Positions 1,874 through 17,824 of a stretch of DNA of 20,000 bases are shown here, in pieces. The notes below the pieces were generated by a model. That model worked only from the letters and a program-made list of their open reading frames with translations. It had not been told where the DNA came from and ran no database searches. Position numbers and translations under genes: made by a program. The stretch is from an uncultured virus (IMG/VR IMGVR_UViG_3300030508_000022). Its lineage: Duplodnaviria > Heunggongvirae > Uroviricota > Caudoviricetes. The stretch spans positions 53,392 to 73,391 of IMG/VR virus record IMGVR_UViG_3300030508_000022; one strand, 5' to 3'. Every line of letters starts with the position of its first letter. Position 1 is the stretch's first letter.

Positions 1874-1919
1874 TACCGCGCAAGAAGGTAATCAAACACA
1901 ACAACAAAAACAAAATACA

Positions 1920-2324
1920 ATGAACATCATTGCAAAGATCGGCGGCCTCTTTATCAAAAAAGCCGCACCCACCGCTGGCCAAAAGGCCGGTGTCATCGCC
2001 AAAGCTGCCATTAGTGCAGTAAGGCCATACGCAGTAGACGGCCTCAAGGTCGCTGCTGGAGTCGCCGCCCTCTATGGCGGTGCCAGACTCGGCATTTCCC
2101 TCGTGGACAATGCGGAGAAGGTTGCGCACAAGGGGGCGAGTGCCGGCAAGAGGGCGATGGAGACCGCAGGGGCTGCTGCCTCCATGGTCAAACACAAGGC
2201 CGCAGGCGCAGTCGGGTTGGCAACAGGCATTGTCCTGAAAGCCACTGGGGTCTTCAAGGGCCCCAAGAAAGACTCGGATGAAATTGTTCCTGAGGGCCTA
2301 GTGCCCCAGGAAGAACTCATCTAG
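1920..2324 (+). CDS. Ala/Gly/Lys-rich hypothetical protein (134 aa), possibly membrane-associated
   Basis: Start reassigned to ATG 1920 (MNIIAK...), which follows an A-rich leader and avoids overlap with the previous ORF. Hydrophobic stretch VAAGVAALYGGARLGISLV. Confidence 0.75.
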   Translation: MNIIAKIGGLFIKKAAPTAGQKAGVIAKAAISAVRPYAVDGLKVAAGVAALYGGARLGISLVDNAEKVAHKGASAGKRAMETAGAAASMVKHKAAGAVGLATGIVLKATGVFKGPKKDSDEIVPEGLVPQEELI

Positions 2325-2339
2325 TTCAAATACGGATTT

Positions 2340-2367
2340 AGGGTGGTGCTAGCAATAGCACCACCCT
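2340..2367 (+). terminator. strong hairpin, probable terminator or mRNA 3' stabiliser
   Basis: Perfect 12-bp stem AGGGTGGTGCTA/TAGCACCACCCT with a GCAA (GNRA) loop just after a stop codon. The U-tract is poor. Confidence 0.6.
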
Positions 2368-2478
2368 TGCCCGTCATCTTTTGAAAAGATACGATTAACG
2401 TTTCTGGCAGTAGCCAGTGTTAAATTATATTAGGTTACCACATATATTTAACACTGACTACTGCTTGAAATAACATAC

Positions 2479-3177
2479 ATGAGTAAAGACAAATTTATTT
2501 TAACTACTGACTATAAGTGCCACATGTTCTCTGCGGTATTCTCCCTTGAAGGACAAGAAAGTATCTTCAACTCAATGGACAAAGCCGACTTGCTCCACTC
2601 CTATATGGTCTCCAGGATCATGATTGAGTTTGATAAGTACGAGCAGGAAGGGATTTTCAATGATACAGAATTTTTAAAAGGCGCTGTCGTTCGAGTTAAA
2701 GATGTTCTGGACTCTGTGAAGAAGAGAGTGTCTGAATCGTACGAAAAGCGACTTGCTATTACTCTTTCCACAATCGAGGAAAGATACCCATTTGAAACAA
2801 AATGTGTAAACGAACTCATTAAAGACCCAACAGGTGTTGTGTGCTCTAGTTTCTTCGTTCCACAAATCATTATGGGGATGATTAATCATCACGAAAATAG
2901 CGAGAACAAGAAACTCCCACACCTGATCTCAATCAACCTTAATCAGTTCGTGGACGCTATTGGATCTTCCAATGAATCTGCAATAACTGATGCTGTCAAT
3001 CTCTGGAGGGAGAAAGACCTAGAGAACCAACTTCAGAATAGTAAAGGGATTGAAAACCTTCGACACCTAATCAAACAAACAGTCCAGGTTAGCCTTGTTG
3101 CTAATGGTGACTTTCAAAAATTTGTACAATCTCAAAATGCTGAAACAAATGCCACCAAAAAAGAAAAGGAGGGGTAG
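2479..3177 (+). CDS. hypothetical protein (232 aa)
   Basis: Long ORF with an A/C-rich leader. No motif recognised. Confidence 0.8.
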   Translation: MSKDKFILTTDYKCHMFSAVFSLEGQESIFNSMDKADLLHSYMVSRIMIEFDKYEQEGIFNDTEFLKGAVVRVKDVLDSVKKRVSESYEKRLAITLSTIEERYPFETKCVNELIKDPTGVVCSSFFVPQIIMGMINHHENSENKKLPHLISINLNQFVDAIGSSNESAITDAVNLWREKDLENQLQNSKGIENLRHLIKQTVQVSLVANGDFQKFVQSQNAETNATKKEKEG

Positions 3178-3805
3178 ACCCCCCAAAGTAAAGGAATCGC
3201 AACTGCCAGTTGTGCCCAAGAAACGGGGTCGTCCATTTAAAAATCCTCCTCAATCACTTCCGACTGAGAAGAAAAAACGTGGCAGACCTTTTAAGAATCA
3301 GCCTACTCCAACTGCTACCAAACCAAAGGTGAGGGCAAAGAGGGTTGAGAAAGTTACCCCAGAAAAACCAATCAAGAAAAAGGAAGTAGTGGTTGATACA
3401 GGGTTTGGATCTGTAGAAGGAAAGATGTTCCTATCCCACCGAGACTCCAAGATACCTAAATTCCAATCCTGGTACAAACAGTACCTGGATGTAGATCCAC
3501 AGAATAATGGAACAGACATTAATGGTCTTTCTGAAGTAATCTCTAAGCTGCAGGATGTAGTTAACGACTACTTCATTGAGAACAGTATAGACCTGTCCAT
3601 TAGGATTCCGGTTATGAGATTGATGCTGGGAGAGAAGATTACAAAAATATTCTTTATGCCAGAAGCTGCTGGAGTGACTGTTGAGATCTATTACAAGGTG
3701 AGTTCAGTTCCATCTGGTGCTAGTCCTTCTACAAAGACAACCTTGGTTTGTAATCAATTCAATTCTGCAGTGAGGTCAGTATTCCCACTGGGAGTTTCTG
3801 GATAG
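3149..3805 (+). CDS. AT-hook-containing putative DNA-binding protein (~218 aa)
   Basis: Start probably ATG 3149 (MPPKKK). Three AT-hook motifs (KRRGRPPK, KKRGRPFK, KKRGRPFK) in a basic N-terminus, followed by a globular-looking domain. Confidence 0.75.
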   Translation: MPPKKKRRGRPPKVKESQLPVVPKKRGRPFKNPPQSLPTEKKKRGRPFKNQPTPTATKPKVRAKRVEKVTPEKPIKKKEVVVDTGFGSVEGKMFLSHRDSKIPKFQSWYKQYLDVDPQNNGTDINGLSEVISKLQDVVNDYFIENSIDLSIRIPVMRLMLGEKITKIFFMPEAAGVTVEIYYKVSSVPSGASPSTKTTLVCNQFNSAVRSVFPLGVSG

Positions 3806-3838
3806 AAATTTATTTTACCCTGAAACTTAAGATTCTTG

Positions 3839-3868
3839 TTGACCTGCCTTAAATCCAGTGGTTAAAAT
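3839..3868 (+). promoter_or_regulatory. candidate sigma70-type promoter
   Basis: TTGACC (3839-3844), 18-nt spacer, TAAAAT (3863-3868), directly upstream of the rod-like hairpin. Confidence 0.45.
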
Positions 3869-3889
3869 CGAATCCGTCAGGATGAGTTC

Positions 3890-3988
3890 GGGAAAAGTCC
3901 GCTTCGCGTTAGCGAAGTGACTTATCGTGAGGAATCCGAAGGTTTCCGAGGGATCAGTCACTTCGGTAGCGAAAGCAGATCTTTTCCC
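3890..3988 (+). ncRNA. ~100-nt rod-like imperfect hairpin (putative ncRNA or structured leader)
   Basis: Nested pairings GGGAAAAG/CTTTTCCC, GCTTCGC/GCGAAAGC, CGAAGTGACT/AGTCACTTCG and GGAATCC/GGTTTCC in an intergenic gap. Confidence 0.55.
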
Positions 3989-4037
3989 CACCATAAATAC
4001 TTAAACAACATGACAAAAAGCTCCCTGAAAGGGAGCC

Positions 4038-4817
4038 ATGTCTTCATCCAAAAAGTTCGTGACAGAAAAAAACAAAAAGACAGATGAGTCTCAGTTTCCA
4101 GTCATAAAGTCAGAGGAGGATTCAGAGCTTCCTGAGAAAGAAGATCTCTTTGATAACTCCCCTAGGCCAGTCTTAACCTCCCTGATTGTTTCAGGAAAAG
4201 AGATCTCTGTCCCTTCCTCCTGTCAGTTCGATACAAAAGCGTTCTGGCATCCCAACCTGCCATTCGTCAACTCCTACAGAAACGAAGGGATCCTTCCAGT
4301 TAAGGAAACTAAGGAGTGGCTCTACAACAACTTCCTAGAAACCCTCACAGACCAAGAGGGTACCCAGAAGGTTATGGCAATGGAGAACGACGAACTTCTA
4401 GGAGTTGTCGCTACTCTATCCAAAGATCAATTTGAGAGACTGGCAATATACTGCTCGCAGAGGTTGTCTGAGGGCGCATACAAAGCTGAATGGAATGTAG
4501 AGATGTGGAACATTGGGTTCTCTCTCTTCTCAGAGCTTGGAATGGTACGGCTAGGGGTAGTTCCCCTTCCAGATGCCAAGAGGCTTTGGGTTGGAAGAGA
4601 TTCAGTTGCTGGATCCAGGCAAATTCAATTCAGGGCTGCTAGAGGAAATTTCCTCCACGTTGGCCTAGACTTTGTAAGAACCTTTATTGGTCAAGATGCC
4701 CACAAGAAGAGTTGGTCTCTCCAGCACAGAGGTGGACTCTGGAGGATAGTGTCAGGTAAACCCCGATCTCCTTCGTATATCTACATTGAGGAGTTCGACA
4801 ACGATTTATTTCAATGA
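4038..4817 (+). CDS. hypothetical protein (259 aa)
   Basis: Long ORF. The putative SD (GGGAG) lies within the hairpin GCTCCCT-GAA-AGGGAGC. ATGA overlap with the next gene. Confidence 0.8.
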   Translation: MSSSKKFVTEKNKKTDESQFPVIKSEEDSELPEKEDLFDNSPRPVLTSLIVSGKEISVPSSCQFDTKAFWHPNLPFVNSYRNEGILPVKETKEWLYNNFLETLTDQEGTQKVMAMENDELLGVVATLSKDQFERLAIYCSQRLSEGAYKAEWNVEMWNIGFSLFSELGMVRLGVVPLPDAKRLWVGRDSVAGSRQIQFRAARGNFLHVGLDFVRTFIGQDAHKKSWSLQHRGGLWRIVSGKPRSPSYIYIEEFDNDLFQ

Positions 4818-5083
4818 GTCTTCGATATGAACAGGATTCAGCAATAGCTGCTACTGAGAAGTTTTTGAAGAGCTTCTTTACTGGGAGGAAAAGAACACTC
4901 AAGGAATTGAGAGAGGAGGCGACCAAGTGCCTCAGACACTTCCCAGGAATTGACAAGGATGGCAAGCCCATCTTTAGTCAGGACAACATCAAGTGTCAGA
5001 CTAGAGATGAGGACCAAGCATTTTTTAATCCCCCAAAAATCTGTCCTCCAGTGGAGTACAGGCGTGGGGATAAGCGATACTAG
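4814..5083 (+). CDS. small phage protein resembling the BPSL0761-like family
   Basis: Pattern MSLRYEQ..AI..TEKFL...LREEA..CLRHFP resembles from memory the family motif MT.P.ER..A...R.FL...R..A..LLRHYP. Translationally coupled to the upstream ORF. Confidence 0.5.
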   Translation: MSLRYEQDSAIAATEKFLKSFFTGRKRTLKELREEATKCLRHFPGIDKDGKPIFSQDNIKCQTRDEDQAFFNPPKICPPVEYRRGDKRY

Positions 5084-5158
5084 TCAGCAGGTCAGTAACA
5101 ACGTCTGGTAGCACATTTGACATAGAGTGCTAGGAGTAACGTCCCTAGCTCCCTCCAC
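5064..5158 (+). ncRNA. putative small structured RNA with a tRNA-like 3' end
   Basis: Hairpin GCTAGG-AGTAACGTC-CCTAGC followed by TCCCT-CCA, able to pair with GGGGA at 5066-5070. The loop motif is shared with the 6903-7120 element. The 5' end overlaps the preceding CDS. Confidence 0.3.
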
Positions 5159-5328
5159 GATTGTCATTTAAAAGCGCCTACGGGATCGAGAGCCCAAAGA
5201 GCGGAGGGACTAAGTGAAAATCTGCTGTATACTTACAGAAGCACCTCTACCCGACAATCCAAAGCGCAATCCTTATACTCGATGACTTGAAAAGGGAGTG
5301 CATTCCCGTTCTGACTATTTTGATTTTA

Positions 5329-5402
5329 TGCGTGATCTTTCAATTGGCAGGAACCTGGCCAAATGGGGCTCGGGAATGTGGGTTCGAGTCCCGCTCACGC
5401 TC
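5329..5402 (+). tRNA. degenerate tRNA or tRNA-like element (no assignable anticodon)
   Basis: Acceptor GCGTGA/TCACGC, D-arm TTTC-AATTGGCA-GGAA and canonical T-arm GTGGG-TTCGAGT-CCCGC. The anticodon arm is irregular (bulged stem, 6-nt loop, no U33) and CCA is not encoded. Confidence 0.6.
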
Positions 5403-5405
5403 GTA

Positions 5406-5743
5406 TTTTCTGGACAAGGAGGTGGGCTTAGAAGCAGCCATCCATAGAGAGTTGACCGTAGTCGGGGGTCTAGGATACCTATGAGTCTACATCAAATACA
5501 CCGATAAAAAGGAGATAAATGTAGTATACGTTAGGGAATATATCTGAAGACTTATCTTATTCATTAAATAAAGGCATATGTTACCTAGGGCACTCTCCCT
5601 AGGTGATTTGAATAGGGTATGCTGCGAGGTTGCTACCTCCTCTTGTAATGAAATCTAGTTATAACCTATTGATTACAAGTAGGTATATGAGTGTTATACT
5701 ACGAGACCAGTCATTTGGCGTAAAAGCACGATTGTCCAGAAAA
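5406..5743 (+). ncRNA. structured RNA carrying 23S rRNA L11-binding (H43/H44) motifs with a large internal insert
   Basis: Perfect 12-bp closing stem TTTTCTGGACAA/TTGTCCAGAAAA. GGCTTAGAAGCAGCCATC (5425-5442) matches conserved 23S H43, and GCGTAAAAGC (5718-5727) matches the H44 loop GCGUAAUAGC with one mismatch. Confidence 0.75.
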
Positions 5744-5758
5744 CATTTTTGTAGAACT

Positions 5759-5961
5759 TCTTGGGTAGTGAAAAATACCGCTTGTTGGTTGAGTTTGGCC
5801 TGGCAAACTGTCATGACCCTATCAGCTTTGGTATGATTGGCTTTCAGACAAGCCACGCCTTGAAGGCAGAAAACAAGCAGGATAGTGTTGGCCAAGCTTC
5901 TTGCATTGCGCATCGCTGATACCGACGCTTACCCTGTTGCGCCTATTCTCACTACTCAAGA
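5759..5961 (+). ncRNA. putative ~200-nt structured RNA of unknown family
   Basis: 13-bp closing stem TCTTGGGTAGTGA/TCACTACTCAAGA (one G-U). Internal GCTTGTT/AACAAGC encloses hairpins AGTTTG/CAAACT, TGGCTT/AAGCCA and GCCT/AGGC. Confidence 0.55.
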
Positions 5962-6150
5962 TCCTTTTTTGGAAGATGTGTTTCGGTTAGTATCGGTATT
6001 GCCGAATTAAATGTTGAAAACCCGTCTGTGGCCGCGAGGAGCAATCCTTTCCCGCCCAAAAAAAGTAACAATGTAGAATTATGTGAAGTCCAAACTCACA
6101 AAAATTCTACTACAGATAATATCAGCAGCCCCTCAAAAAGGAATTAGTAT

Positions 6151-6897
6151 ATGTCGTACTTAGTACTCGACCCACAAAACAGCATTGAGGACAAATTCAA
6201 AGTCATCTCAGCAGTATCAGCAAGCAGACAGCATGGAGTTCAGTTCCGCCCAAGATCCTCTCAGGATAATACTTGGTTCGACTTCCCATGCACAGAAGTA
6301 ACAGACGAACATGTTCGTCAGAACTTCTTTAGAATCCCGATTTCGGGACAGGAGCAGACCTATCAAATCGAGCCGGTTCGCCGTGTGGTGTATCCAGCAC
6401 TCGCTGACATCGAACCGAAAGACACTTGGCTAAACCCAGGTCGCCTCTCTCCCGAGCAGATCAATACTGCAGCGGGATATCGTTTATTGACAAAGAATGA
6501 ACAGATTGCAATCGAGCTAGGTAAGGTCTCACAATGCTTCATTGGCGATCTTGAATTTTACGACTCCGGTGTTTGGAGAACGCGTCACCTAGGCAGTGCC
6601 CTTGCTGGCAAGAACGGTTTAACCACTTACCGCACCAAGCGTAAGTACAAGAACCCACTGAGTTCAAAAACTGATGATTGGTTCACTCCAACAATGACTT
6701 GGATTCGACTCAAGCGAGACAAGTCTACTGCGTGGCTTGTAACAGAAATTGTCCTTGATTTAACTTCAGGCCGTCCCGAGGGGTTGTTATTTAATAATGT
6801 TAGACACGATGTACTAAGTCTCATCCGTTCGGACAAATATGAGGTTAGTGCTGGTGACGACTATTGGCAGCCATTATCGGTCTTCAAAAACATTTAG
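6151..6897 (+). CDS. hypothetical protein (248 aa) embedded in the ncRNA array
   Basis: Long ORF with AAGGA upstream. No family recognised. Confidence 0.8.
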   Translation: MSYLVLDPQNSIEDKFKVISAVSASRQHGVQFRPRSSQDNTWFDFPCTEVTDEHVRQNFFRIPISGQEQTYQIEPVRRVVYPALADIEPKDTWLNPGRLSPEQINTAAGYRLLTKNEQIAIELGKVSQCFIGDLEFYDSGVWRTRHLGSALAGKNGLTTYRTKRKYKNPLSSKTDDWFTPTMTWIRLKRDKSTAWLVTEIVLDLTSGRPEGLLFNNVRHDVLSLIRSDKYEVSAGDDYWQPLSVFKNI

Positions 6898-6902
6898 TTG
6901 AT

Positions 6903-7120
6903 TTTGGTAGGCGGTGTGAAATCGTAGAACATAAAGGTTAGTTTCAAAGATAATCCTAGGGCCCCAAATTTAGGACTTTGAATCAGGTATTTAGCAAGGC
7001 ACTGATAAAGCTTAGACCTTAAAATACTCTACAAGGAAATACTGGAGTACCAGTCCGGTTAGAAATGAGAGTATACCGAAACGCAGATAATCGTGGGAAG
7101 TAACGTCCCACCCTACCAAA
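6903..7120 (+). ncRNA. putative ~215-nt structured RNA with a tRNA-like 3' end
   Basis: Closing stem TTTGGTAGG/CCTACCAAA stacked on hairpin GTGGGA-AGTAACG-TCCCAC. Internal stems TTCAAAG/CTTTGAA, ATACTCT/AGAGTAT, ACTGG/CCAGT and CGGT/ACCG. Confidence 0.6.
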
Positions 7121-7126
7121 TTGCCT

Positions 7127-7270
7127 TTTTGTAGTGCCGCAAGGCTGTGGTGAAACCATCCACAAATAGTAAGTGACCGAGTCCCTTTGCGAGCTGCAGG
7201 TTTCTTCAGGACAGAGGCAGGGGCCGGATCATCCTGTTACCATTCAGTGCACAAAACTATTACTACAAAA
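7127..7270 (+). ncRNA. putative ~145-nt structured RNA of unknown family
   Basis: Closing stem TTTTGTAGTG/TACTACAAAA, a GCC-GCAA-GGC GNRA hairpin and an internal CCCTTTGC/GCAGGGG stem. Confidence 0.5.
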
Positions 7271-7325
7271 TAAGCGGCAAAGGCCGCTCAGATATTGCCC
7301 ATGTTAGTTTAGTAGAAAGTTCAGT

Positions 7326-7793
7326 ATGGCAAAGAAGATTAGTGTAGAGGAGTTAGATACAGTCTTGACTGCTTCAGTCCAGGACGGAGCAGAGAAAGAA
7401 AGAATTTTAGCAGAGGTTCGTAATTATATTGCGAATCTTGCAAATGATCAGGACGAGGCAGAGCCTGCTGTAGAGACCAGGGATGTAACAATCCTTTTTG
7501 GCTCTCAGGAGACCATTGACGTGATTGATACCGACGCGATTGTAGCGTTCACTGTCAAAATTGAAGCCACCTCAGATCATAACCAGATAATTCCTCATTT
7601 GCTAGCGAAGGCCAGTATTTTTAATCAGAACACAAGGCGTAGAAACTCTCGTATCCAGAATCTGGGCGAGACTTTCAACACCCTCAGTCCTAAAAGGCAC
7701 TTGGATGAGTTTCCTAAAAAGATCCTCACCAAGCAAGCGTCCCTGGTCATCAAGACCACGAACCATCCTATACAGAGTGTTGTTGTGCGTTGA
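7326..7793 (+). CDS. hypothetical protein (155 aa)
   Basis: Clean ORF with plausible composition. No family recognised. Confidence 0.8.
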   Translation: MAKKISVEELDTVLTASVQDGAEKERILAEVRNYIANLANDQDEAEPAVETRDVTILFGSQETIDVIDTDAIVAFTVKIEATSDHNQIIPHLLAKASIFNQNTRRRNSRIQNLGETFNTLSPKRHLDEFPKKILTKQASLVIKTTNHPIQSVVVR

Positions 7794-7803
7794 CTACGGA
7801 GAT

Positions 7804-7864
7804 GCGCTACAGCCGGTGTAACCTTTTACGGGGTTATGCCGGCTAAGCGCCTTTCTATAGAAAG
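7804..7864 (+). promoter_or_regulatory. long hairpin(s) upstream of the Ubl gene
   Basis: 15-bp stem AGCCGGTGTAACCTT/GGGGTTATGCCGGCT with 4 G-U pairs, extended by GCGCT/AGCGC. A second hairpin CTTTC-TATA-GAAAG follows. Confidence 0.5.
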
Positions 7865-7938
7865 CGCCTAGTTGTGGTTCTTGATTAAAAACTAACGCTG
7901 GCTCCTGGCGTCCAGGTAGCAAACATAATATACACATT

Positions 7939-8184
7939 ATGGCAAACGGTAACATTCGTATCACTGTCTCCTTCGGAGGCAACCAGCTCCCAATCAATGG
8001 TCTCCCTGTGGGGTCCACTCTGAGCTGCATTCGTGCCAACCGCAACGTTTCTGCAGCCCTCGGCTACAGCAACGAGAACGTGGAGTTCGTCCTCAACGGC
8101 TCCCGCGCAAGCGACAATACTGTCATCTCTGACGGCGATGTCGTTAACGTTCAGCACAAGGCACACGAGAAGGCTTCCGCCTAG
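7939..8184 (+). CDS. ubiquitin-like (beta-grasp, ThiS/MoaD/Prok-Ub-like) protein (81 aa)
   Basis: Size and strand/helix pattern (IRITVSF...GSTLSCI...VEFVLNG...DNTVISDGDVVNV) are typical of beta-grasp proteins. First gene of an E2/E1/JAB cluster. Confidence 0.85.
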   Translation: MANGNIRITVSFGGNQLPINGLPVGSTLSCIRANRNVSAALGYSNENVEFVLNGSRASDNTVISDGDVVNVQHKAHEKASA

Positions 8185-8200
8185 TCTCGTAGGCTAATTT

Positions 8201-8236
8201 TATCCCCCAATCTCGTTGCGCCGAGATTGGGGGATA
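8201..8236 (+). terminator. perfect 15-bp hairpin between the Ubl and E2 genes
   Basis: TATCCCCCAATCTCG-TTGCGC-CGAGATTGGGGGATA, with a T-rich run about 10 nt downstream. Confidence 0.65.
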
Positions 8237-8282
8237 TCTTAGACATTTATTTTTTTTATATCCCACAAGTTCTTCAAAACAC

Positions 8283-9092
8283 ATGAAACCTCTTATTATC
8301 CTTAACGAAGACGGTGTCGCATACCGTATGGAGCCATTCGCTCTACAAAATGTTAGTGAGATCATCGAACGAGTCTCAAATCAGTCGTTCTCAACCATCA
8401 AAAAGCATACGACTTTTGAGGTTGCAGAATCAGTTGGATCATCAGGCGTACAGTACAAAAGGGTGCCATTCCACCTGTCCATTACGAAGAAGAACGAAGC
8501 TGTCTACTGGGGATATATTCCTGGGATTGTCTTTGATACCTCCTTCCAGATTGTGGAACACAGTGGAACCCCTCGATTGATCGCTGATTTTACTCGCTCA
8601 GCAACTGACGCATTCCAGGATAGGATTTACTGCTCATCGGAATCTCTCAGTACTTCGGATTGCAAGGTTCGGTTCTTGGTTGCTATCTCTCTTACTCCAG
8701 GGGGGTCAGGCAATTACGAAATCAATGCATATTTCTGCTTCCAACTTTTTGATGTGAAAGCGGGGTTAATTATGGGCAACTTCTTGCCGTGTATCCCAAA
8801 CGTCTTCGCTGACGCCAGGGTTTGCATGGGTAGTGCCTTTGATAAGTACACCAATCCTGTCAAAACCTCGGATGAAGAAATCCAGCGTACCCTCAAGTCA
8901 TTCTTTGAGAGCCGCATGAATTCGGATCTGATCACTCAAGGTGCAAATCGCATCGAGTTGGCAGACCAGCTAATTGGGTGGAACAGAGAAAAGAAGCAGG
9001 TTGCTCCCATCAAGTCCGCCAAAACAATCCTCACCGTCAAAGTTGGAAACTACTATCTTGATGGCCTTCCATACGCCACAGTTGGTTGGTAA
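8283..9092 (+). CDS. prokaryotic E2-like (ubiquitin-conjugating fold) protein, similar to Prok-E2/PRTRC protein B
   Basis: Motif P-NVF-DARVCMG with putative catalytic Cys181 and downstream FFESRMNSDL. Context next to Ubl, E1 and JAB. Confidence 0.75.
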   Translation: MKPLIILNEDGVAYRMEPFALQNVSEIIERVSNQSFSTIKKHTTFEVAESVGSSGVQYKRVPFHLSITKKNEAVYWGYIPGIVFDTSFQIVEHSGTPRLIADFTRSATDAFQDRIYCSSESLSTSDCKVRFLVAISLTPGGSGNYEINAYFCFQLFDVKAGLIMGNFLPCIPNVFADARVCMGSAFDKYTNPVKTSDEEIQRTLKSFFESRMNSDLITQGANRIELADQLIGWNREKKQVAPIKSAKTILTVKVGNYYLDGLPYATVGW

Positions 9093-9101
9093 TACACATA
9101 C

Positions 9102-10208
9102 ATGAAATCCTTATTCCAAGAAATGTTGGAGTTGCCTGGATTGCCTGTCAGTTCCGAAACTATTTTCGGAGCTACTCGTCGGTCCAGGATGTTGTCTCTT
9201 CTTGACGACTTTAGTTATCTCAAAAAAAATGGAGGGGAGCTGAAAATATTCCCACTTACTGCAGAACAAAAAGCGGATAGGCGGGACCGAAGTTTTATAT
9301 CTAAGGAGCTATCCGAGTCCTTTGAGATTGGTCAATTCCAGTGCCAAATATTCGATGCAGTTGTTAAAAAGCTGGAAGCAGAGGTTTCCAGAGGAGAAGA
9401 TTCTCCTTGGGCTTTGCGATTCATTGCAGAGATGCCTCGACAGCAGGAGCCACAACAGGCTCCTGTACCACAAGCCCTACCAGAGGTTCGAGTGGAGGAA
9501 CAACCCCTTACGGGAGTTTTCCCAGCTGATGCATTCAATACTCCAGTGGCGCAGCAGGCTACTCCAGCAGTTGTTCCAGTTGTTGCCCCAGCTGCCTATC
9601 AGCCTACAACTCCACGTCAACAAGTTCCCATTGCACCAATTATTGGTGGAATTGGGGCTGAAGTAAATTGGGCGGATATAGCTGAGCCAACACCTGCACC
9701 TAATCGTGGTGCTCCTCAGGTTACAGATGGATTCGTCGATATGGATCCAGCTGACTTTGAGAATCTTCCTACGGCAGCTCCTACTACCCCTCCTCCCGCT
9801 CCCACGGCAGCAGAGGCAGCAGAGGCGGGAGAAGTTCCTCGCGCTACCATGGCCAATGAAACTCCAGCTGTTGGCGAAGGTGCGATTACAGGATTTGGTG
9901 AAATTCGTACACCTGAGGCTGTGGATCAGATTGTTACACCACCAGCTGTTGGTACTACGGTGGTTCAGGTTACTGATGGTGCAGGTGCCGCTGGATTGTG
10001 GCATACACCAGCTGTTGGTAATCAATTCTTTGGAGTTAATCAGGGAGATGACCACATAGTGTTTACCCCTACTGATCACAACCTGTTCATTACTGCTGAT
10101 AACAATCTGGCAGTGGGTGATACTCCAGCTCCAGTAGCTGATGTTCCAGATGTGCAGCAGGCAGTTCGGAATACAGTTCGTAGGCGCGTACGCGCAATAA
10201 ACGAATAG
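9102..10208 (+). CDS. protein with a small N-terminal domain and a long Pro/Ala/Thr/Val-rich lysine-free region (368 aa)
   Basis: ORF starts 9 nt after the E2 stop. Repeated TPAV/PAVG motifs. Last Lys at residue 90. Confidence 0.8.
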   Translation: MKSLFQEMLELPGLPVSSETIFGATRRSRMLSLLDDFSYLKKNGGELKIFPLTAEQKADRRDRSFISKELSESFEIGQFQCQIFDAVVKKLEAEVSRGEDSPWALRFIAEMPRQQEPQQAPVPQALPEVRVEEQPLTGVFPADAFNTPVAQQATPAVVPVVAPAAYQPTTPRQQVPIAPIIGGIGAEVNWADIAEPTPAPNRGAPQVTDGFVDMDPADFENLPTAAPTTPPPAPTAAEAAEAGEVPRATMANETPAVGEGAITGFGEIRTPEAVDQIVTPPAVGTTVVQVTDGAGAAGLWHTPAVGNQFFGVNQGDDHIVFTPTDHNLFITADNNLAVGDTPAPVADVPDVQQAVRNTVRRRVRAINE

Positions 10209-10234
10209 TATACGCACTAACTGAAAGTTAAATG

Positions 10235-10266
10235 GGTCAGTGCCGAAAAGTCGGCACTGACCATTT
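10235..10266 (+). terminator. hairpin, probable terminator or processing site
   Basis: 12-bp stem GGTCAGTGCCGA-AAAG-TCGGCACTGACC followed by ATTTCTT. Confidence 0.6.
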
Positions 10267-10308
10267 CTTAGATAAACAAAAATCAACCAAAAAACAATTA
10301 ATCAAAAT

Positions 10309-11022
10309 ATGAAACAGAACTACTACGTCATCGGATGTGGAGGGGTATGCAGCTATTTCTTGCCAGCATTCCTCAAGACCCTCAATTACTCCAAGGAGTT
10401 TAAGGGGTCAACAGTAACCCTAGTTGATGGCGATACAATCGAGGACAGGAATTATGAGCGTCAGCTCTTCGCCAGCGGATTGACGGGAATGAACAAGGCA
10501 GAGGCCTTGATGTCGGTTCTTGGTGAAAGTCACCCCAACATCAATCTCAAGACACATTCCGAATATGTGACTGGATCATTCCCCATTAAGGATGGTTCTG
10601 TTGTCATTGCGTTTGTCGACAATCATCCGGCTCGAAAAGACATCCTATCAATTGTTGATCGTCATGAGGCAAAGTGCTTCATTGGAGCCAATGGTCGGAT
10701 ATCTGCCAGCTCGTATTATTACGACCACAAGTGGGAGGGGACTACTCTGGATCCGCGAGTGCGATATCCTGAGATACTTACTACTGAGCGCGGTTCACCT
10801 GTCCATGCGGCTGGGTGCAATACCGAAGAGCACCTGGAAGAGATTCCACAAACATCACTGGCAAATTACTTTGCCGGAGCACACACACTACTCTTGTGGA
10901 ACTTCTGGACCACTGAGTACAAAGAACTTGACCCCGAGCAGTCATACGACTTCTGGCCGGTTGAGATAAGCAACACCGACATGCGCTATGCGACAAAGAT
11001 GGTTGGAGACCTAAAGGAATAA
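10309..11022 (+). CDS. ThiF/MoeB/E1-family adenylyltransferase (Ubl-activating enzyme)
   Basis: VIGCGGVC nucleotide loop, VDGDTIEDRNYERQ, NKAEAL and VDNHPAR motifs. Candidate thioester Cys170 (AAGC) followed by Q---AN. No CxxC zinc pairs. Confidence 0.93.
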   Translation: MKQNYYVIGCGGVCSYFLPAFLKTLNYSKEFKGSTVTLVDGDTIEDRNYERQLFASGLTGMNKAEALMSVLGESHPNINLKTHSEYVTGSFPIKDGSVVIAFVDNHPARKDILSIVDRHEAKCFIGANGRISASSYYYDHKWEGTTLDPRVRYPEILTTERGSPVHAAGCNTEEHLEEIPQTSLANYFAGAHTLLLWNFWTTEYKELDPEQSYDFWPVEISNTDMRYATKMVGDLKE

Positions 11023-12636
11023 ATGGAACAAACACCAGAACAATCAATACCAGCATCGGAAGAGCAAGTGGATAAGCCGTTCTTCCCAATAGCTCCATAT
11101 CACTACTTCAAAAATACATCGTATCGGTCTTCGATGTTGTCTGATCGTAGGGCCCAGTTGGTTAGATGGGGTCTCAATCCACAGAGAAATATATTTGTGG
11201 GTAATTTTGCGGGGGCGCTCTTACTAGAAGGACACCCTGGTGCAGATTGCGTCCCATTTGACATGACGGCATGTGGATATCCTATCGTACCTGAAGCGTA
11301 CGAAAAGATATTCAGTCACATGACCCCTATGGGGTACTTCAATCCAGTAATTGATGGAAAGATTCTGTCATACATGGCGGATATTCCATTCATTCCATTT
11401 GAGGTAACAAAGGCATGCAAGACGGTTTGCGGGTCTAACTACAGCCTTCCCAAGGGCAAGTTCTTGAGCGTTGGTCGTCGTACCAGGAGCTCTCGTGGTG
11501 GTGGACGGTCTTCACTGTTTGACCCGACCAATAACAATATTCAGGTTGAGTTTATTCGTCTTGCTGACGGAGATACCTCAACTCCTACTGTTATGACAAT
11601 TGAGGACAACGTGAACATGGCCAATTTCGATATAAGTAATATCTTTATCGACTCAAAACATACGGTTAATAAAAGTCTCTTGGGATTATTTATTCTACCT
11701 ATTGGTTCAGTGGTGTGGTTTTGGAACAATCAAAAATGGACTACCTGCAGCGTTAAGACATCTAAGACCAAAGATGGTGTTATGGACTTCAGTCTTGTTG
11801 AGGTTGCAGCAACAAAAAGTGGTGGATCCAACGAGAGGGCAGTTGTGTTTCAAACATCGGGTGAGGAGATCGAGGTACATAAAACAGTATCCAAAATGAT
11901 GGAGAGTGACACTATTCGAGTTGCTCAAAAGAGCATCAAGTCGGTTGGTGTCAAGGATTCAACCTACGGAACTGTACGAGGACAGATCATGAAAATGCTC
12001 TGTAACGAGTTCGGCTCTGAGATCCTGGGTCCCGTAAAGACCAACCTATTGCAGTCAAGTGAACACAAGACGATGAAAAACGTCATTGAGTTTGCCGACA
12101 GGCTGGTGTCCAAAACCCCATCAATTAGTGTATCACTGCACAGTGGTTCAACAATGATGTCTATATGGCAAGCAGCTATTCGTGCTGCTGAGGATCAGGT
12201 TCCACTTTACTGGGATAACCAGTTTGTCGAACTTGGTTCAGGTAACATATCAAGTATACTAGGGGGGTTTGGACTTCATTGCTACCGTCCAAGTAGTGAC
12301 AACTACGATAGAACATTGTCTCATCTTCAGATGGACCCCAAAACAGCAAAGGGTCTATTTAAGAAAGTCAAAGTTGAGTGCTCTGGGACTTTTGTGTCCA
12401 CAATCAAGAGGACATCAAAAGCCAAGATCAAAACCGCCATAATGGTGGAAGTTCCTTCGGCTATCGCCAATCAACCCTCAAACATATCCAAGGGATTGAT
12501 TGAGGCATTTATACAAAGAAAGGAAATATTTTCTCGAAGCATGTTTGAGGAAGAAGATCCATCGTCGCCCCAAGAAGAGTCTATTCAGAGAGTAGATTTT
12601 GTCTTGGATAAAAAGTCACTCATAATCAAAAGATAA
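11023..12636 (+). CDS. hypothetical protein (537 aa) within the Ubl cassette
   Basis: Starts immediately after the E1 stop (TAA-ATG) and ends 7 nt before JAB. No family recognised. Confidence 0.85.
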   Translation: MEQTPEQSIPASEEQVDKPFFPIAPYHYFKNTSYRSSMLSDRRAQLVRWGLNPQRNIFVGNFAGALLLEGHPGADCVPFDMTACGYPIVPEAYEKIFSHMTPMGYFNPVIDGKILSYMADIPFIPFEVTKACKTVCGSNYSLPKGKFLSVGRRTRSSRGGGRSSLFDPTNNNIQVEFIRLADGDTSTPTVMTIEDNVNMANFDISNIFIDSKHTVNKSLLGLFILPIGSVVWFWNNQKWTTCSVKTSKTKDGVMDFSLVEVAATKSGGSNERAVVFQTSGEEIEVHKTVSKMMESDTIRVAQKSIKSVGVKDSTYGTVRGQIMKMLCNEFGSEILGPVKTNLLQSSEHKTMKNVIEFADRLVSKTPSISVSLHSGSTMMSIWQAAIRAAEDQVPLYWDNQFVELGSGNISSILGGFGLHCYRPSSDNYDRTLSHLQMDPKTAKGLFKKVKVECSGTFVSTIKRTSKAKIKTAIMVEVPSAIANQPSNISKGLIEAFIQRKEIFSRSMFEEEDPSSPQEESIQRVDFVLDKKSLIIKR

Positions 12637-12643
12637 CAATACT

Positions 12644-13855
12644 ATGTCCGAAAGACTGTATATCCACAACAATAAGCCTCTTTACTTGAGGAGCCTGACG
12701 GAAGAAATATCTGTGTATACTCCTGTTGAGTTTACCGAGCTGAAGAGCGAGCCATTGCTACGACTCAAGACTGGGAAGATGTCCCTGTCTCTGTGGCGCA
12801 CCATTGCGTTCTTCTTCAAGAAGATAAATGATACTGAAAAATCCGAAGCTCAGGTTCGTTTGTTTTACAACAAAACAACTCGGATGTGGAAGGCTCACGC
12901 CTTCCCTCAGGAGATGAACACTGGGATGACGACCAAGGAGTTGCCAGACCATGAGAGGTTCCAGACTGACATGAACGAGATGCTGGCCGGTGGTTTCCAT
13001 CAGTGGGGAACTGCCCATAGTCATTGCAACGCTACAGCGTTTCAGAGCGGGACGGACAAGACCGACGAAGATAACTCAGCTGGTATCCATATCACCATGG
13101 GAACGGTGTCTGGGCCGAAGATTGATCTTCATGCTCGGTTTACTGTCATTCTGCCTGGATCTCTTGAGTTTGATGGTGAAGGCAAGGAGACGGCTGTGAA
13201 GGCAAGGGTGTATCAATCCAAGCCGGATCTTCGCGACTTCGTTGAGGTTCCTAACTGTTTCGTATCAGAAAATGCTCCACCAGAGATCAGGACCTTTGCC
13301 TTTGATTTCTTGATCAATACTCCCAGTGAGGAGTTGGTTGATCAAGAGCTGGTAAAGCGCTGGGTTGAGAACCGCATCCCCAAGGCCCTCACGCCTAGGG
13401 TGATTGTGCCATATGCTCAACGTCATCCGTACATGGGGTTGCCCCATCACGGTACCGGGGCTCACCATCAAGGATCCGACTATTGGAACCGTGGGGGTAA
13501 GTCAAACAGTTCAAAAAAAAAGCGAGAAAGGGCGGGGCGTTCGACAGCTGCTTCGTCGGCGCTGATGCCGGTTAATCAGTCTCTGATAGAACCACAGGTA
13601 AACAAGGTCGCGGCAAGGCACAAGATAACTCAACTCAATCTCAAGAACATTCTATCTAAAGCAGATGGGAATCTTACTAGCTCTGAGCTGAATGTCATCA
13701 TTGATATGCAGACCAATATCTTCTCGGTATACAATATATCCGAGGCATGCATGATCTTGAATCTTGAGGAATGGATTAAGGGCCGGAGGATTGCTAGTGG
13801 GATAGAAAATGGAGCCTCCATGGAAGATATCATGATGGGGTATGCCGGAGAATAA
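12644..13855 (+). CDS. JAB/JAMM (MPN+) metallopeptidase with a C-terminal extension
   Basis: Upstream Glu (KSEAQV) plus an exact H-x-H-x7-S-x2-D motif: HSHCNATAFQSGTD. GIHITMG strand follows. Confidence 0.92.
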   Translation: MSERLYIHNNKPLYLRSLTEEISVYTPVEFTELKSEPLLRLKTGKMSLSLWRTIAFFFKKINDTEKSEAQVRLFYNKTTRMWKAHAFPQEMNTGMTTKELPDHERFQTDMNEMLAGGFHQWGTAHSHCNATAFQSGTDKTDEDNSAGIHITMGTVSGPKIDLHARFTVILPGSLEFDGEGKETAVKARVYQSKPDLRDFVEVPNCFVSENAPPEIRTFAFDFLINTPSEELVDQELVKRWVENRIPKALTPRVIVPYAQRHPYMGLPHHGTGAHHQGSDYWNRGGKSNSSKKKRERAGRSTAASSALMPVNQSLIEPQVNKVAARHKITQLNLKNILSKADGNLTSSELNVIIDMQTNIFSVYNISEACMILNLEEWIKGRRIASGIENGASMEDIMMGYAGE

Positions 13856-13931: not shown

Positions 13932-13969
13932 ACTTCGATTTTTAAAAACTAAACAAAAACAAAAAACAA

Positions 13970-15328
13970 ATGTTAAAATCTATACAAATTTTTATCATCG
14001 ATAAGCTTGTTAGAGAGGCAAGGTCTGCATATATCTCGCTTGGTCGAGAGTTCCCTGCGATCCAGACTCCACTCGAAATCGAAGATGTAAAAACAAAAAC
14101 GTTCCTTGCTGCATTTCCTGGTATTGATGCAGTTGCACTCGCTTCTATTGAGAGTGGGCTATTGGCACAGCACATCAATGTGACTGAGTCGATCTTGCGG
14201 AACAACAACCTGTACGCAGTGATTGGGTCTATTGTTGCGAGTAGTTCGTACGACTTCTCTACTGTTGCACCTGACTTCGTTTCACCATATGTTGATTCAG
14301 AGGAAATTGAGTCGGTTGTTAGTGGTCTCGTTGGTGCAGTCCAGCCAGTCGAGTTTGATTGGGCCGCAAAGAAGGTGGTCCCCAAAGCCACTACTATCCT
14401 CCAGGAAGTAAACATCAACGGGCCTATTGTCCCCGCAAGGTCATTGGACTGGCAGGAAAACAGGGTGGTAACCCAAGCACCAACCCCAACACCAACTCCA
14501 ACACCAACTCCAACACCAACACCAGTGAATCCAAATCCGCTAGCAGCACAAGTTATTCCGGCAAATCCACTTGCCGCACAAGTTGTTCCAGCCACAGAGC
14601 TGAATCCACTCGTTGGGGCAGTTGTCCCAGCCCAGGATGTAGTTGATGTCAATGAAGATGACTTCTTTGTCGAAGTTGACTCTTTGCAAGCCAAGTATCC
14701 AGGGTGTCTAGTTGTCGGGTTGTTCCGACCATACAAGACCGAAAAGAAAGATATGGGAAACTACAGCTATCACCTTGAAGAGACATCATCCGTCAAAGAT
14801 GCTGCTTTCTTCAAGGCCATTAAAGAGCACAATCTCGAACTAGATGTCAAAGACTTCCTTGTTCGAGATTCTGAAACATTTGAGGAAGTGCTCGAATCAA
14901 TGAGAAAAGCTATTATTGAAGATAAGACTGTCACAATCTCCACAGGCACCACCAGTGACATGACGACTCCTGGATTCAAGACAGGGATCACCATCAGTAT
15001 TGGTAAGAAACCAAGATCTGATAGGTACCCTGACGGACAATATAACGATCAGGATGAGTGGGTCGATGATGAGGAGAAAAATATCGCAGACATAGTTAAT
15101 AGTGAGGATGATGTAATTCCGGTTACTGCTTACTTCCAGGAAAATACCTGGGGAATTAGGGCGACTGGGGATTACTTTGTATTCCCCAACAATCAGTCGA
15201 ACCCTTCGGTTCTTGATTTGACGAAGAAATTCTTCGTTATCCCAACCAGCATCATCTCGGATGAATTCCGTGAGGCGTTGATTGAGGCATTTAATGACTT
15301 CACTTTTGACGAAGACTTCAGTCTGTAA
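13970..15328 (+). CDS. acidic hypothetical protein with a (PT)n linker (452 aa)
   Basis: Long ORF after an A-rich leader. Two domains separated by PT repeats and NPLAAQV repeats. Confidence 0.85.
   Translation: MLKSIQIFIIDKLVREARSAYISLGREFPAIQTPLEIEDVKTKTFLAAFPGIDAVALASIESGLLAQHINVTESILRNNNLYAVIGSIVASSSYDFSTVAPDFVSPYVDSEEIESVVSGLVGAVQPVEFDWAAKKVVPKATTILQEVNINGPIVPARSLDWQENRVVTQAPTPTPTPTPTPTPTPVNPNPLAAQVIPANPLAAQVVPATELNPLVGAVVPAQDVVDVNEDDFFVEVDSLQAKYPGCLVVGLFRPYKTEKKDMGNYSYHLEETSSVKDAAFFKAIKEHNLELDVKDFLVRDSETFEEVLESMRKAIIEDKTVTISTGTTSDMTTPGFKTGITISIGKKPRSDRYPDGQYNDQDEWVDDEEKNIADIVNSEDDVIPVTAYFQENTWGIRATGDYFVFPNNQSNPSVLDLTKKFFVIPTSIISDEFREALIEAFNDFTFDEDFSL
14480..14632 (+). repeat. intragenic CCAACN hexamer repeat (PT)n followed by three ~30-nt NPLxxxVxPA repeats
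   Basis: Directly visible in the DNA and in the translation. Confidence 0.8.
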
Positions 15329-15336
15329 TCACAAAG

Positions 15337-15798
15337 ATGCAAACAGTCCGAGCATCCTGCTACATGGGACTCAATGCAGTCCTTCGGGACGCCGCTGCTG
15401 CCCAGGGGAGAACCCCCTGGGTAGTATTGGTGTCTTCAAATGAGATGAGCGCTAGGTCGGCAATGATTGACGAGCGTGTCCTTACAAAGTCATATAAGAT
15501 TCCTCTACAGGACATTCTGCGCATAGAGTGTTTTGATGGAGACCCTTTTGATTATCCTGGTGCTACTCTATTCTCTGATAGTACTGCACAGCAGATTGCA
15601 AATTTCTTAAACCGTGGTTTTTGGAATTCTGAAGCAGATTTGGTTGTATCCTGCCCCACTGGCATTTCCATAAGTCCAAGTATTGCAAAGGGATTGTACG
15701 AAAAGACCCCTCACCGCCTGGGATTGGCGTTACATCCCACTAAGCCGCCTAAGTTTTCTAGTAGAATCTTAAAAAGCGTGGCTCAGTACGTTTCTTAA
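15337..15798 (+). CDS. protein-tyrosine/dual-specificity phosphatase-like protein, probably inactive
   Basis: ILRIECFD...LFS...AQQIANFL...LVVSCPTGISISPSIA resembles HCxAGxSRS but lacks the His and the CX5R Arg. Confidence 0.6.
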   Translation: MQTVRASCYMGLNAVLRDAAAAQGRTPWVVLVSSNEMSARSAMIDERVLTKSYKIPLQDILRIECFDGDPFDYPGATLFSDSTAQQIANFLNRGFWNSEADLVVSCPTGISISPSIAKGLYEKTPHRLGLALHPTKPPKFSSRILKSVAQYVS

Positions 15799-15858
15799 CT
15801 TGTTGCGGCGCAACGCTAAGTTAATACATTTTTTAGTAAACCCCAAAGTATTCATAAA

Positions 15859-16239: not shown

Positions 16240-16268
16240 CACCAAGAGTCCTCCCCGTACCATCGCAA

Positions 16269-17617: not shown

Positions 17618-17620
17618 TTA

Positions 17621-17752: not shown

Positions 17753-17771
17753 TTCTTGTCCACTCTATTTT

Positions 17772-17797
17772 GTGGGGCCTTCGGGCCCCACTTTTTT
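17772..17797 (+). terminator. Rho-independent terminator
   Basis: GTGGGGCC-TTCG-GGCCCCAC followed by TTTTTT (cUUCGg tetraloop). Confidence 0.92.
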
Positions 17798-17824
17798 AGG
17801 TCTTGAAAAACAACACAAAAATAC

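Follow-up and report, generated by a model that had tools for sequence, protein, structure and literature searches.

A small open reading frame (ORF) of an uncultured virus probably codes for the modifier protein in a ubiquitin-like conjugation system carried by a phage, and the functional C-terminus of this modifier would be Lys-Ala (K78-A79) and not Gly. The ORF lies in a stretch of 20,000 nucleotides (the window) that covers positions 53,392 to 73,391 of the IMG/VR record IMGVR_UViG_3300030508_000022, and it specifies a ubiquitin-like protein (Ubl) with the sequence MANGNIRITVSFGGNQLPINGLPVGSTLSCIRANRNVSAALGYSNENVEFVLNGSRASDNTVISDGDVVNVQHKAHEKASA (P0001). Downstream of it, genes for an E2-like protein, a ThiF-type E1-like adenylating enzyme and a JAB/JAMM metallopeptidase were found (Table 1). 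The assignment builds on the fold of the Ubl, on the way the genes are ordered, on catalytic motifs that are conserved and on a Lys-[Ala/Gly] end that occurs throughout the family and is followed by variable extensions.

Fold and C-Terminus of the Ubl

Modelling with AlphaFold2 (AF2) from a 25-sequence alignment gave a structure with a mean predicted local distance difference test score (pLDDT) of 85.1 and the order beta-beta-alpha-beta-beta. The strands comprise residues 5-12, 15-23, 48-52 and 68-73 and the helical part residues 28-41, while the tail from 74 to 81 is disordered or flexible. Comparison of the model with the PDB by Foldseek returned 161 matches at E≤1e-3, headed by SUMO and Caldiarchaeum ubiquitin with template modelling scores of 0.66-0.70, E-values of about 4e-5 and sequence identities of 15-19%. 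A profile search of the PDB with the Ubl gave weak matches to ubiquitin, MoaD and SAMP2 (E 0.02-0.08). As judged from this confident model, the ORF is a member of the ubiquitin-like beta-grasp superfamily.

The original prediction, made from the DNA letters alone, had stated that a C-terminal Gly is missing, and the translated ORF bears this out. Gly occurs at positions 4, 13, 14, 21, 25, 42, 54 and, for the last time, 66; Lys is restricted to K74 and K78, and a single Cys is present at position 30. The C-terminal stretch VNVQHKAHEKASA reads ...QHKAHEKASA. With its KASA end the protein lacks the activated C-terminal Gly expected of conjugated Ubls.

An exhaustive phmmer search with the Ubl against 1.84 billion representatives yielded 62 hits at E≤1e-3. 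With a hidden Markov model (HMM) built from 24 single-domain hits, 54 of these were confirmed as family members; six long proteins (749-3475 residues) and two low-complexity repeat proteins were excluded. The domain ends in Lys-Ala in 44 members, in Lys-Gly in nine and in Lys-Cys in one, so that Ala or Gly follows the invariant Lys in 53 of 54 cases, and no member terminates at the Lys. K78 is the sole invariant column of the 25-sequence alignment, the mean column identity of which is 44%. The pair K74-A75 aligns with a second, looser [KR]-A position, and the family motif can be approximated as [KR]-A-x-x-K-[AG]. The proposal that EKA is the counterpart of the xKG end in related Ubls is supported by this alignment, in which K78-A79 falls on the invariant Lys and the Ala, Gly or Cys after it.

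Beyond the motif the proteins differ. No further residue follows in 16 members, one in 19, two in 14 (including the SA of the window Ubl), three in two and a longer stretch in three; an extension of 0-3 residues is thus found in 51 of 54 members, and its sequence is not conserved. Tandem proteins of two or three domains make up 24 of the 54 members. All 25 internal domains end in K-A (20) or K-G (5) before short linkers, the repeats inside one protein are 37-96% identical, and each of the 23 complete tandem proteins uses the same residue, Ala or Gly, in all its repeats. A word-indexed profile search returned 98 clusters, among which 94 have a K-A end and 90 stop right at the motif. The latter mostly read ...E[RQKP]QASSKA. 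In their sources the clusters go under the name 'hypothetical protein', with two called 'sulfur carrier protein ThiS'.

Since the Lys-[Ala/Gly] pair is invariant, the extension of 0-3 residues varies and the motif is kept in diverged internal repeats, the alignments point to Lys-Ala as the working end, with the residues beyond it probably being removed before use. The terminus is retained across the 54 members, diverged as they are, and at 45 of 48 viral loci with a Ubl (see below), which indicates that it is under purifying selection and has not decayed.

A sequencing error or a decayed copy had to be considered as well and was ruled out, as the tail is kept in close and distant relatives. 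P0002, which is 80% identical to the window Ubl, has the identical ...HKAHEKASA end, and the Ubls of five viral contigs of the same subfamily (L089-L093) end in ...HEKAA or ...HEKALA. Close homologues ending uniformly in Gly, as might be expected if the window carried a degenerate copy, were not found; those named here end in Ala. A separate observation concerns P0003, which ends ...HEKAGFFRRAIWFLSRIVPTKKALA. The Ubl at L093:7991-8248 (-) is identical before that tail and ends in ...HEKALA, and the gene call behind P0003 may contain a frameshift or a read-through.

Enzymes of the Cassette

The order Ubl, E2-like protein, small protein, E1, (variable protein), JAB was constant in every lineage examined, and the core cassette is present in L010, L062, L076, L083 and L089-L093. 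The window E1 (N-terminus MKQNYYVIGCGGVCSY) matches Pfam ThiF with 41.2 bits, above the cut-off of 28.1. Eleven of its residues, G9, G11, D40, D42, E45, N48, Q52, K63, D104, R109 and C170, are invariant in 17 diverse sequences. Across 23 peptidase sequences, E68, H125, H127, S135 and D138 do not vary, the HxHx7Sx2D motif is found in 64/64 locus homologues, and PADLOC reported one weak JAB match in the window.

For the E2-like protein a 25-sequence alignment showed N173, C181, N213, D215 and L216 to be invariant and P172, G178 and G183 to be nearly so; 62 of 68 locus homologues carry the motif PN..G.[ILV]C. Its loop, (I/L)PN...G..C.G, resembles the HPN...C of eukaryotic E2s. Alignment of its profile by hhalign with the E2-like protein encoded beside a plasmid PRTRC ThiF gave a probability of 70% (E 4e-5). 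In a VIA-align comparison the top rows held Ubc8, Ubc13/Mms2, BubB, Cdc34, E2S, UBC12, UFC1 and the E2 domain of Cap2. Taken as a model-based assignment, an E2/UBC fold is likely. Because the catalytic motifs are intact, namely the ATP site and C170 of the E1, C181 of the E2-like protein and the JAMM residues of the peptidase, all three enzymes look active.

Evaluation of Alternative Readings

A number of findings weigh against an active Lys-Ala conjugation system. The Ubl reaches no curated Ubl family threshold (ThiS, 14.1 bits at a cut-off of 22.5), and two records of the Joint Genome Institute (JGI) call its relatives 'sulfur carrier protein ThiS'. The E2-like protein matches Pfam Prok-E2_D with E 0.0019 and 18.4 bits and the peptidase matches Prok-JAB with E 1.8e-4 and 21.8 bits, both under cut-offs of 25 bits. 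The AF2 model of the E2-like protein is of low confidence (pLDDT 59.6), and a Foldseek search with it gave nothing at E≤1e-3; E2/UBC/UEV folds fill most of the top 20 rows of the VIA-align comparison with Z-scores of only 4.7-5.6. Among the short extensions, 15 of 35 end in Ala (A, SA, VA, LA, QA, GA, DAA, VIA), and the Ubl of an abundant marine clade needs no trimming, yet the JAB gene is retained there. Adenylation, thioester formation, trimming, conjugates, targets and biological role are all steps that we infer.

The Ala ends of the extensions bear on the question of whether trimming takes place at all. The window Ubl may use its encoded last residue directly; the E1 would then activate Ala81, and K78-A79 would serve as a recognition element two residues upstream. 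The Ala-ended extensions include those of the window Ubl and its 80% identical relative, and the marine clade manages without trimming. However, a bulky residue (I, L, V, F, K, R, Y, N or C) stands last in 14 of the members with short extensions, and end residues of this kind blocked activation in the Cap2 system according to PMC10097602. Moreover, extensions of 0-3 residues would place the reactive end at varying distances from the invariant Lys, and the internal tandem repeats carry the same motif. Direct activation of Ala81 is in our opinion unlikely. The excess of Ala at the ends of short extensions is an observation for which none of the proposed explanations accounts.

A terminal Ala is compatible with what was reported for type II CBASS. 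In the accessible text of Jenson et al. (2023, PMC10097602), Cap2 conjugates cGAS via a C-terminal Gly or Ala, the last cGAS residue is Gly or Ala in 1,583 type II CBASS operons, and the Ala-ended cGAS of E. cloacae is conjugated. A Gly-to-Ala mutant of cGAS still gives the Cap2 thioester there, but no thioester is formed with Ser, Val, Arg or Trp. The analogous Cap2/cGAS pair is a direct precedent for a bacterial E1 that activates a terminal Ala, and by this analogy we infer conjugation of the phage Ubl through Ala. Cleavage after the conserved residue has been described too. As far as the accessible text of the two preprints goes, a JAB peptidase cuts the Ubl precursor of the Bub system and exposes its conserved C-terminal residue (PMC11601596), and Cap3 cleaves exactly after the last cGAS residue (Ledvina preprint). 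Trimming of SA by the JAB of the phage cassette, as put forward in the original prediction, is plausible on the basis of the alignments. Because the marine clade keeps its JAB without an extension, trimming is not the sole job of this enzyme and possibly not its job, and it probably also detaches the modifier from targets.

The weak profile matches lead to a second alternative, in which the Ubl is a sulfur carrier or another E1-activated intermediate of the ThiS/MoaD or MccB type instead of a protein modifier. Its terminus would be adenylated and then thiocarboxylated or otherwise altered for a phage-specific biosynthesis. Weak Pfam matches of the single-domain members go to ThiS in 10 of 25 cases (best E 5e-4) and to TGS in 7 of 25. 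The 24 further members (23 tandem forms and P0008) gave matches to ThiS, Rad60-SLD, TGS and Ub-Mut7C, a few of them above the cut-off. No match to Prok_Ub or PRTRC_C was obtained for P0001, the 25 single-domain members, the 23 tandem forms or P0008, and none to Multiubiquitin for the 23 tandem forms and P0008. Further points for a sulfur carrier are the ThiS name given by JGI to two relatives, the small, single-domain, ThiF/MoeB-like E1 and a gene of the phosphoadenosine phosphosulfate (PAPS) reductase family beside a PRTRC ThiF on the plasmid locus L007. In contrast, every lineage examined has the Ubl linked to a JAB and to an E2-like protein whose Cys is invariant, and Iyer et al. (2006) take the linkage of JAB and E2 as an argument for ubiquitin-type transfer over sulfur transfer. 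The 17 window ORFs include no sulfurtransferase, rhodanese, ThiG/MoaE-type or biosynthetic partner, and the Ubl has no Gly-Gly. We give a sulfur-carrier role a low probability.

Some Ubls, e.g. Hub1, act without conjugation. The window Ubl could likewise be a non-covalent beta-grasp adaptor, or else a Gly-terminated Ubl in origin that has decayed and lost its activation. Against both versions stand the retention of the terminal motif in the 54 members and the viral loci, the intact catalytic motifs of the enzymes and the fact that the close relatives are not Gly-ended, and we consider them highly improbable.

Proposed Mechanism

For a conjugation system working through Lys-Ala the following sequence of steps can be proposed. 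The 81-residue precursor would lose Ser-Ala, most likely via the cassette JAB, which would also split the two- and three-domain tandem forms of relatives. The E1 would then adenylate the Ala79 carboxylate, and the Ubl would be loaded onto Cys170, handed on to Cys181 of the E2-like protein and attached to amino groups of phage or host targets. Reversal of the attachment would be another task of the JAB. The invariant penultimate Lys is a probable recognition element for E1 and JAB.

The supply of the modifier may be set by a hairpin in the gap between the Ubl and E2 genes. It has a minimum free energy of -34.5 kcal/mol (z -6.85), and 0 of 200 shuffled sequences were as stable. A comparable GC-rich hairpin follows the Ubl gene in all seven relatives folded (L010, L076, L083, L089, L091, L092 and L093), where it is frequently trailed by a U-run. 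A consensus terminator scan did not list the window hairpin among its entries. These features suggest a terminator- or attenuator-like element, and partial termination at this position would result in an excess of the modifier over the enzymes. A second strong hairpin of 12 pairs, eight of them GC, was observed at 10235-10262 between the 368-residue ORF and the E1 gene; here the terminator scan calls both strands.

Glycine-Rich Loop of the E1

Gly is the canonical sixth residue of the loop in ThiF/MoeB-type E1 enzymes. The window E1 instead reads G9-C-G-G-V-C14, as the original prediction had stated; its further suggestion, a co-adaptation of this loop to the Ala end, found no support. In the marine clade (45 loci with a Ubl) GxGGxT, with Thr in sixth position, accompanies a Ubl that stops at K-A. 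L018 combines GAGGVT with K-A and a following HG. The window and 4/4 E1s of its subfamily have GCGGVC with K-A and one or two further residues, and in L083 a GCGGVA loop, with Ala in sixth position, occurs next to a Ubl that stops at K-A. Among the Lys-Gly loci, L062 and L063 share the canonical loop GCGGIG (K-G and K-G plus A, respectively), while five others (L067, L069, L075, L076 and L077) have GAGGIT and stop at K-G. Two plasmid E1s read GCGGTG and GSGGTG.

Taken together, the sixth residue is Thr, Cys or Ala in all of the approximately 52 Lys-Ala loci and the canonical Gly in none, counts that are biased by the partial retrieval of the marine sample with a pattern demanding G[AC]GGV[TC]SY; canonical GxGGxG is found in only two Lys-Gly loci, and the comparison spans perhaps six lineages. 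A strict co-adaptation of loop and terminus is ruled out by the Lys-Gly lineage with GAGGIT (five loci) and by the Lys-Ala locus L083 with GCGGVA. Because a Gly-ended lineage has a Thr loop, the lineages are few and retrieval was biased, we regard the unusual loop, on the aligned sequences, as a clade feature and not as a necessary co-adaptation. A loose link between the Ala end and a non-Gly loop may exist.

Distribution of the Cassette

Searches of IMG/VR with the E1 gave 6, then 59 loci. In total, 65 loci were examined, including the window and five second copies of the same contigs. A match to the Ubl HMM was found upstream of the E1 in 49 of them, most of the others being cut too near the E1. 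Among the 48 non-window loci with a Ubl, the protein terminates precisely at ...QAS[SC]KA in 45 (42 of 45 distinct contigs); the remaining three end in KAHG, EKG and IKGA. The abundant clade consists of marine phage contigs of about 40 kb, which also carry a family-A DNA polymerase. Overall, the cassette occurs in at least 59 viral contigs found via the E1, 45 of them with a Ubl gene, alongside the 98 protein clusters found via the Ubl profile.

Loci of the window subfamily were retrieved with a degenerate DNA pattern from five viral contigs of 40-131 kb (L089-L093). The full set of E2-like protein, E1 (GCGGVC) and JAB is present in four of them, and the fifth contig is cut. These contigs are syntenic with the window from the 155-residue upstream gene through the 537-residue protein and beyond. 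The pattern ETRANxK[AG], representing another subfamily, located 19 metagenome loci from soil and other sources, 12 of them with a Ubl-HMM match, and these loci carry the same cassette; in viral contigs this pattern had 0 matches.

Other searches were negative. Cultured phages (INPHARED) gave no tblastn match with the Ubl, one weak partial match with the window E1 and five weak matches with the marine-clade E1, and the cassette was not found among them. A search of viral contigs with P0001 itself revealed no related loci. In 185,579 species-representative genomes the window-subfamily pattern had five matches, with 0 true members among them.

Genomic Context

The window is the final 20 kb of a single 73,391-bp contig, on which 65 ORFs of at least 120 residues lie on the plus strand and 11 on the minus strand. 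Comparison of 22 ORFs of the contig with PHROGs gave matches for 13, among them a large terminase, a tail-fibre-like protein, a DnaB-like helicase, a primase, a large DNA polymerase, a UvsX-like recombinase and an SbcD-like nuclease. As these matches include terminase, tail-fibre-like, DnaB-like and UvsX-like proteins, the contig is, judged by its gene content, a tailed-phage genome or a fragment thereof.

Table 1. Features of the cassette and its surroundings; positions refer to the window.
Feature	Position	Strand	Characteristics
155-residue protein, no assigned function	7326..7793	+	phmmer to same-size ORFs in L089-L093, E 1.5e-44 to 4.5e-23
Ubl, ubiquitin-like beta-grasp protein	7939..8184 (stop included)	+	81 residues, ATG start, TAG stop
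Ubl, conserved domain end K78-A79	8170-8175	+	family alignment
Ubl, variable extension S80-A81	8176-8181	+	family alignment
Hairpin in Ubl-E2 gap (98 nt)	8201..8236	+	perfect, 15 bp, GC-rich; T8 run 14 nt downstream
E2-like protein, 269 residues	8283..9092	+	P172-N173...G178..C181-x-G183 motif
E2-like protein, putative catalytic Cys181	8823-8825	+	invariant in alignment
368-residue protein	9102..10208	+	N-terminal ~53 residues match small protein encoded between E2 and E1 in relatives
ThiF-type E1-like adenylating enzyme, 237 residues	10309..11022	+	Pfam ThiF; single domain, no rhodanese
E1, Gly-rich loop GCGGVC (G9-C14)	10333-10350	+	
E1, invariant Cys170	10816-10818	+	17-sequence alignment
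537-residue protein, no assigned function	11023..12636	+	phmmer to 536-583-residue ORFs, same position
JAB/JAMM metallopeptidase, 403 residues	12644..13855	+	E68, H125-x-H127-x7-S135-x2-D138
JAB, HxHx7Sx2D motif	13016-13057	+	

Three further proteins are encoded within or next to the cassette. The gene for the 155-residue protein is kept directly upstream of the Ubl gene in the closest viral relatives of the window, and its product matched no Pfam family above threshold. The small protein between E2 and E1 has 109-150 residues in relatives versus 368 in the window. Residues 2-53 of the window protein match the L093 ORF 6604-7056 (phmmer E 4.9e-8), and the part beyond approximately residue 53 is a low-complexity expansion rich in P, A, T and V; no Pfam family was assigned. 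An opposite-strand ORF of 269 residues (9477-10286) looks like a shadow of this low-complexity region. The 537-residue protein is conserved in the window subfamily only (L089-L091 and L093, phmmer E 1.3e-53 to 5e-27); the marine clade loci gave no match, and Pfam, PHROG and Atlas provided no usable lead. It is a candidate specificity factor or target.

Outside the cassette, several ORFs were recorded. An ORF of 236 residues at 3095-3805 contains three AT-hook-like KK(R/K)RGRP(P/F)K repeats, with similar sequences in syntenic ORFs of L091 and L093. Downstream of the JAB gene, an ORF of 452 residues (13970-15328) shows a (Thr-Pro)7 run and repeated NPLAAQV(I/V)PA units and has a partial match in L093 (phmmer E 7e-11); the opposite-strand ORF of 264 residues at 13942-14736 is probably its shadow. 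The region 15337-19452 contains a phrog_5614 protein and a phrog_335 'phosphatase'-like protein (16188-16745), both syntenic with L091 and L093. These are followed by a calcineurin-like phosphoesterase (17825-18658) and an MptE-like/sialyltransferase-like protein (18685-19452).

Significance

Experimental demonstrations of bacterial Ubl-type conjugation have up to now come from host defence systems (CBASS, Bil and Bub), with Gly-ended modifiers or, for cGAS, with Gly or Ala. Here, a full set of Ubl, E2, E1 and JAB is found on phages themselves, together with a modifier that has a conserved Lys-Ala end. In the accessible parts of the open-access literature we found no description of a phage-encoded Ubl-E2-E1-JAB cassette, although the supplementary tables of Iyer et al. 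(2006) and of the Bil and Bub studies may list phage operons. Neither a beta-grasp Ubl with a conserved terminal Ala nor a paper linking PRTRC to ubiquitin-like proteins was found there; among the PRTRC papers listed, PRTRC is mentioned in genome annotations only, as judged from titles and the openings of abstracts.

A wider interpretation can be offered tentatively, although we have considerable doubt about it. Tailed phages, including a marine clade, would encode their own complete Ubl conjugation via Lys-Ala, and the Ala end and the altered E1 loop would keep the pathway apart from the Gly-dependent E1s and JABs of the host Bil, Bub and CBASS systems. The phage could then tag host or phage proteins without cross-talk, and the tandem members would be poly-Ubl precursors cut by the JAB. 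If the system does conjugate, the chemistry of Ubl activation extends to a natural Ala-terminated beta-grasp modifier, and natural poly-Ubl precursors exist outside eukaryotes. It would also raise the question of what phages tag, be it host defences, their own virion proteins or replication factors. With 81 + 269 + 237 + 403 residues the system is small, and its reconstitution in E. coli should be feasible. Should it prove not to conjugate, the cassette would still be widespread among phages, and as it has no name it merits being defined as a family.

Comparison with Known Systems

We take the genes of operon type 6d to be those which NCBIfam and TIGRFAM call the PRTRC system. This operon type, defined by Iyer, Burroughs and Aravind (2006), is the closest described system. 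According to that paper, its Ubl is small and has a highly conserved C-terminal Gly, and the other gene products are an alpha-helical protein, an E2-like protein, a JAB and an E1-like protein. The 6d E2-like protein lacks the His of HPN but has a conserved Cys and an absolutely conserved His downstream, the JAB has an N-terminal domain, and the operons are often located on mobile elements.

The phage cassette shares the five gene kinds, with the 368-residue protein as the putative counterpart of the alpha-helical protein. As in 6d, the Ubl is small and standalone, E1, E2 and JAB are not fused to one another, a rhodanese domain is absent from the E1, the carrier is a mobile element, and the Cys of the E2-like protein is conserved without the His of HPN (the phage cassette reads IPN or LPN). 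The best NCBIfam models for the phage E1, JAB and E2 are PRTRC_ThiF, PRTRC_A and PRTRC_B, but the scores of 41.3, 22.6 (E 6.4e-5) and 12.1 bits remain far below the respective cut-offs of 144.75, 101.8 and 131.45. Further differences concern the Ubl, which ends in Lys-Ala in the phages and in a conserved Gly in 6d; hhalign of the phage Ubl with a 71-residue Ubl-like plasmid neighbour ending in ...KTNG gave a probability of 0.5%. The phage E2-like proteins are without the conserved downstream His, and in that of the window the part after C181 contains no His at all. The 17 window ORFs gave no match to a ParB family, the carrier is a tailed phage and not a plasmid or an integrative and conjugative element, and tandem poly-Ubl forms occur in the phage family. 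In terminal Gly, Ubl profile match, downstream His, PRTRC scores and ParB/plasmid context, the cassette thus departs from several features that define 6d.

Two plasmid loci were noted in this comparison. L008 (Butyrivibrio plasmid, Firmicute) contains at 1797-8622 a possibly analogous set with a ThiF (GSGGTG) and Rad52, as well as an ORF of 74 residues ending in ...FLRAA, a 220-residue protein with G.ICTG and a 558-residue protein with a C-terminal HSHx7Sx2D JAB motif. On L007 (Photobacterium plasmid, 7238-9625) the PAPS reductase family gene lies a short way downstream of the PRTRC ThiF, separated from it by a single small gene on the opposite strand, and a sulfur or nucleotide-modification link is possible for plasmid PRTRC systems.

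Eukaryotic Ubl precursors (SUMO, NEDD8, Atg8) and polyubiquitin carry extensions or head-to-tail repeats that are cut by a dedicated peptidase before activation. The phage Ubls resemble them in the beta-grasp fold with a flexible tail and in the short variable extensions or tandem repeats. They differ in the reactive residue, which is Gly (usually Gly-Gly) in eukaryotes, and the identity to the window Ubl amounts to 15-19%.

Type II CBASS, in the accessible text of the cited reports, is the only experimentally shown E1/E2 pathway we met that uses a C-terminal Gly or Ala, and its JAB-family peptidase cuts right after that residue. All PADLOC matches of the window E1 are to Cap2-type 'E1-E2' models; they are weak (≤24 bits) and cover the N-terminal region only. 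In CBASS, as described there, a nucleotidyltransferase takes the place of the beta-grasp Ubl as the conjugated protein, E1 and E2 form one fusion protein, and the system serves host defence; no CD-NTase or effector family was found by Pfam or PADLOC among the 17 window ORFs.

With Bil and Bub, as far as their accessible descriptions go, the cassette has in common the set of Ubl, E2, E1 and JAB/JAMM peptidase and the occurrence of multi-beta-grasp Ubls; in Bub, the JAB also matures the precursor by a cut after the conserved terminal residue. Both systems, however, use a C-terminal Gly. According to the same descriptions, the E1 of Bil consists of tandem adenylation domains and a Cys domain, unlike the single 237-residue domain of the phage E1, and Bub forms Ser/Tyr oxyesters without an E1 Cys, whereas a Cys is invariant in both E1 and E2 of the phage cassette. 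No Bil model of PADLOC matched in the window. From its gene content and motifs, we rate the cassette as a putative phage-borne variant of the 6d/PRTRC-type systems, and not as Bil, Bub or CBASS.

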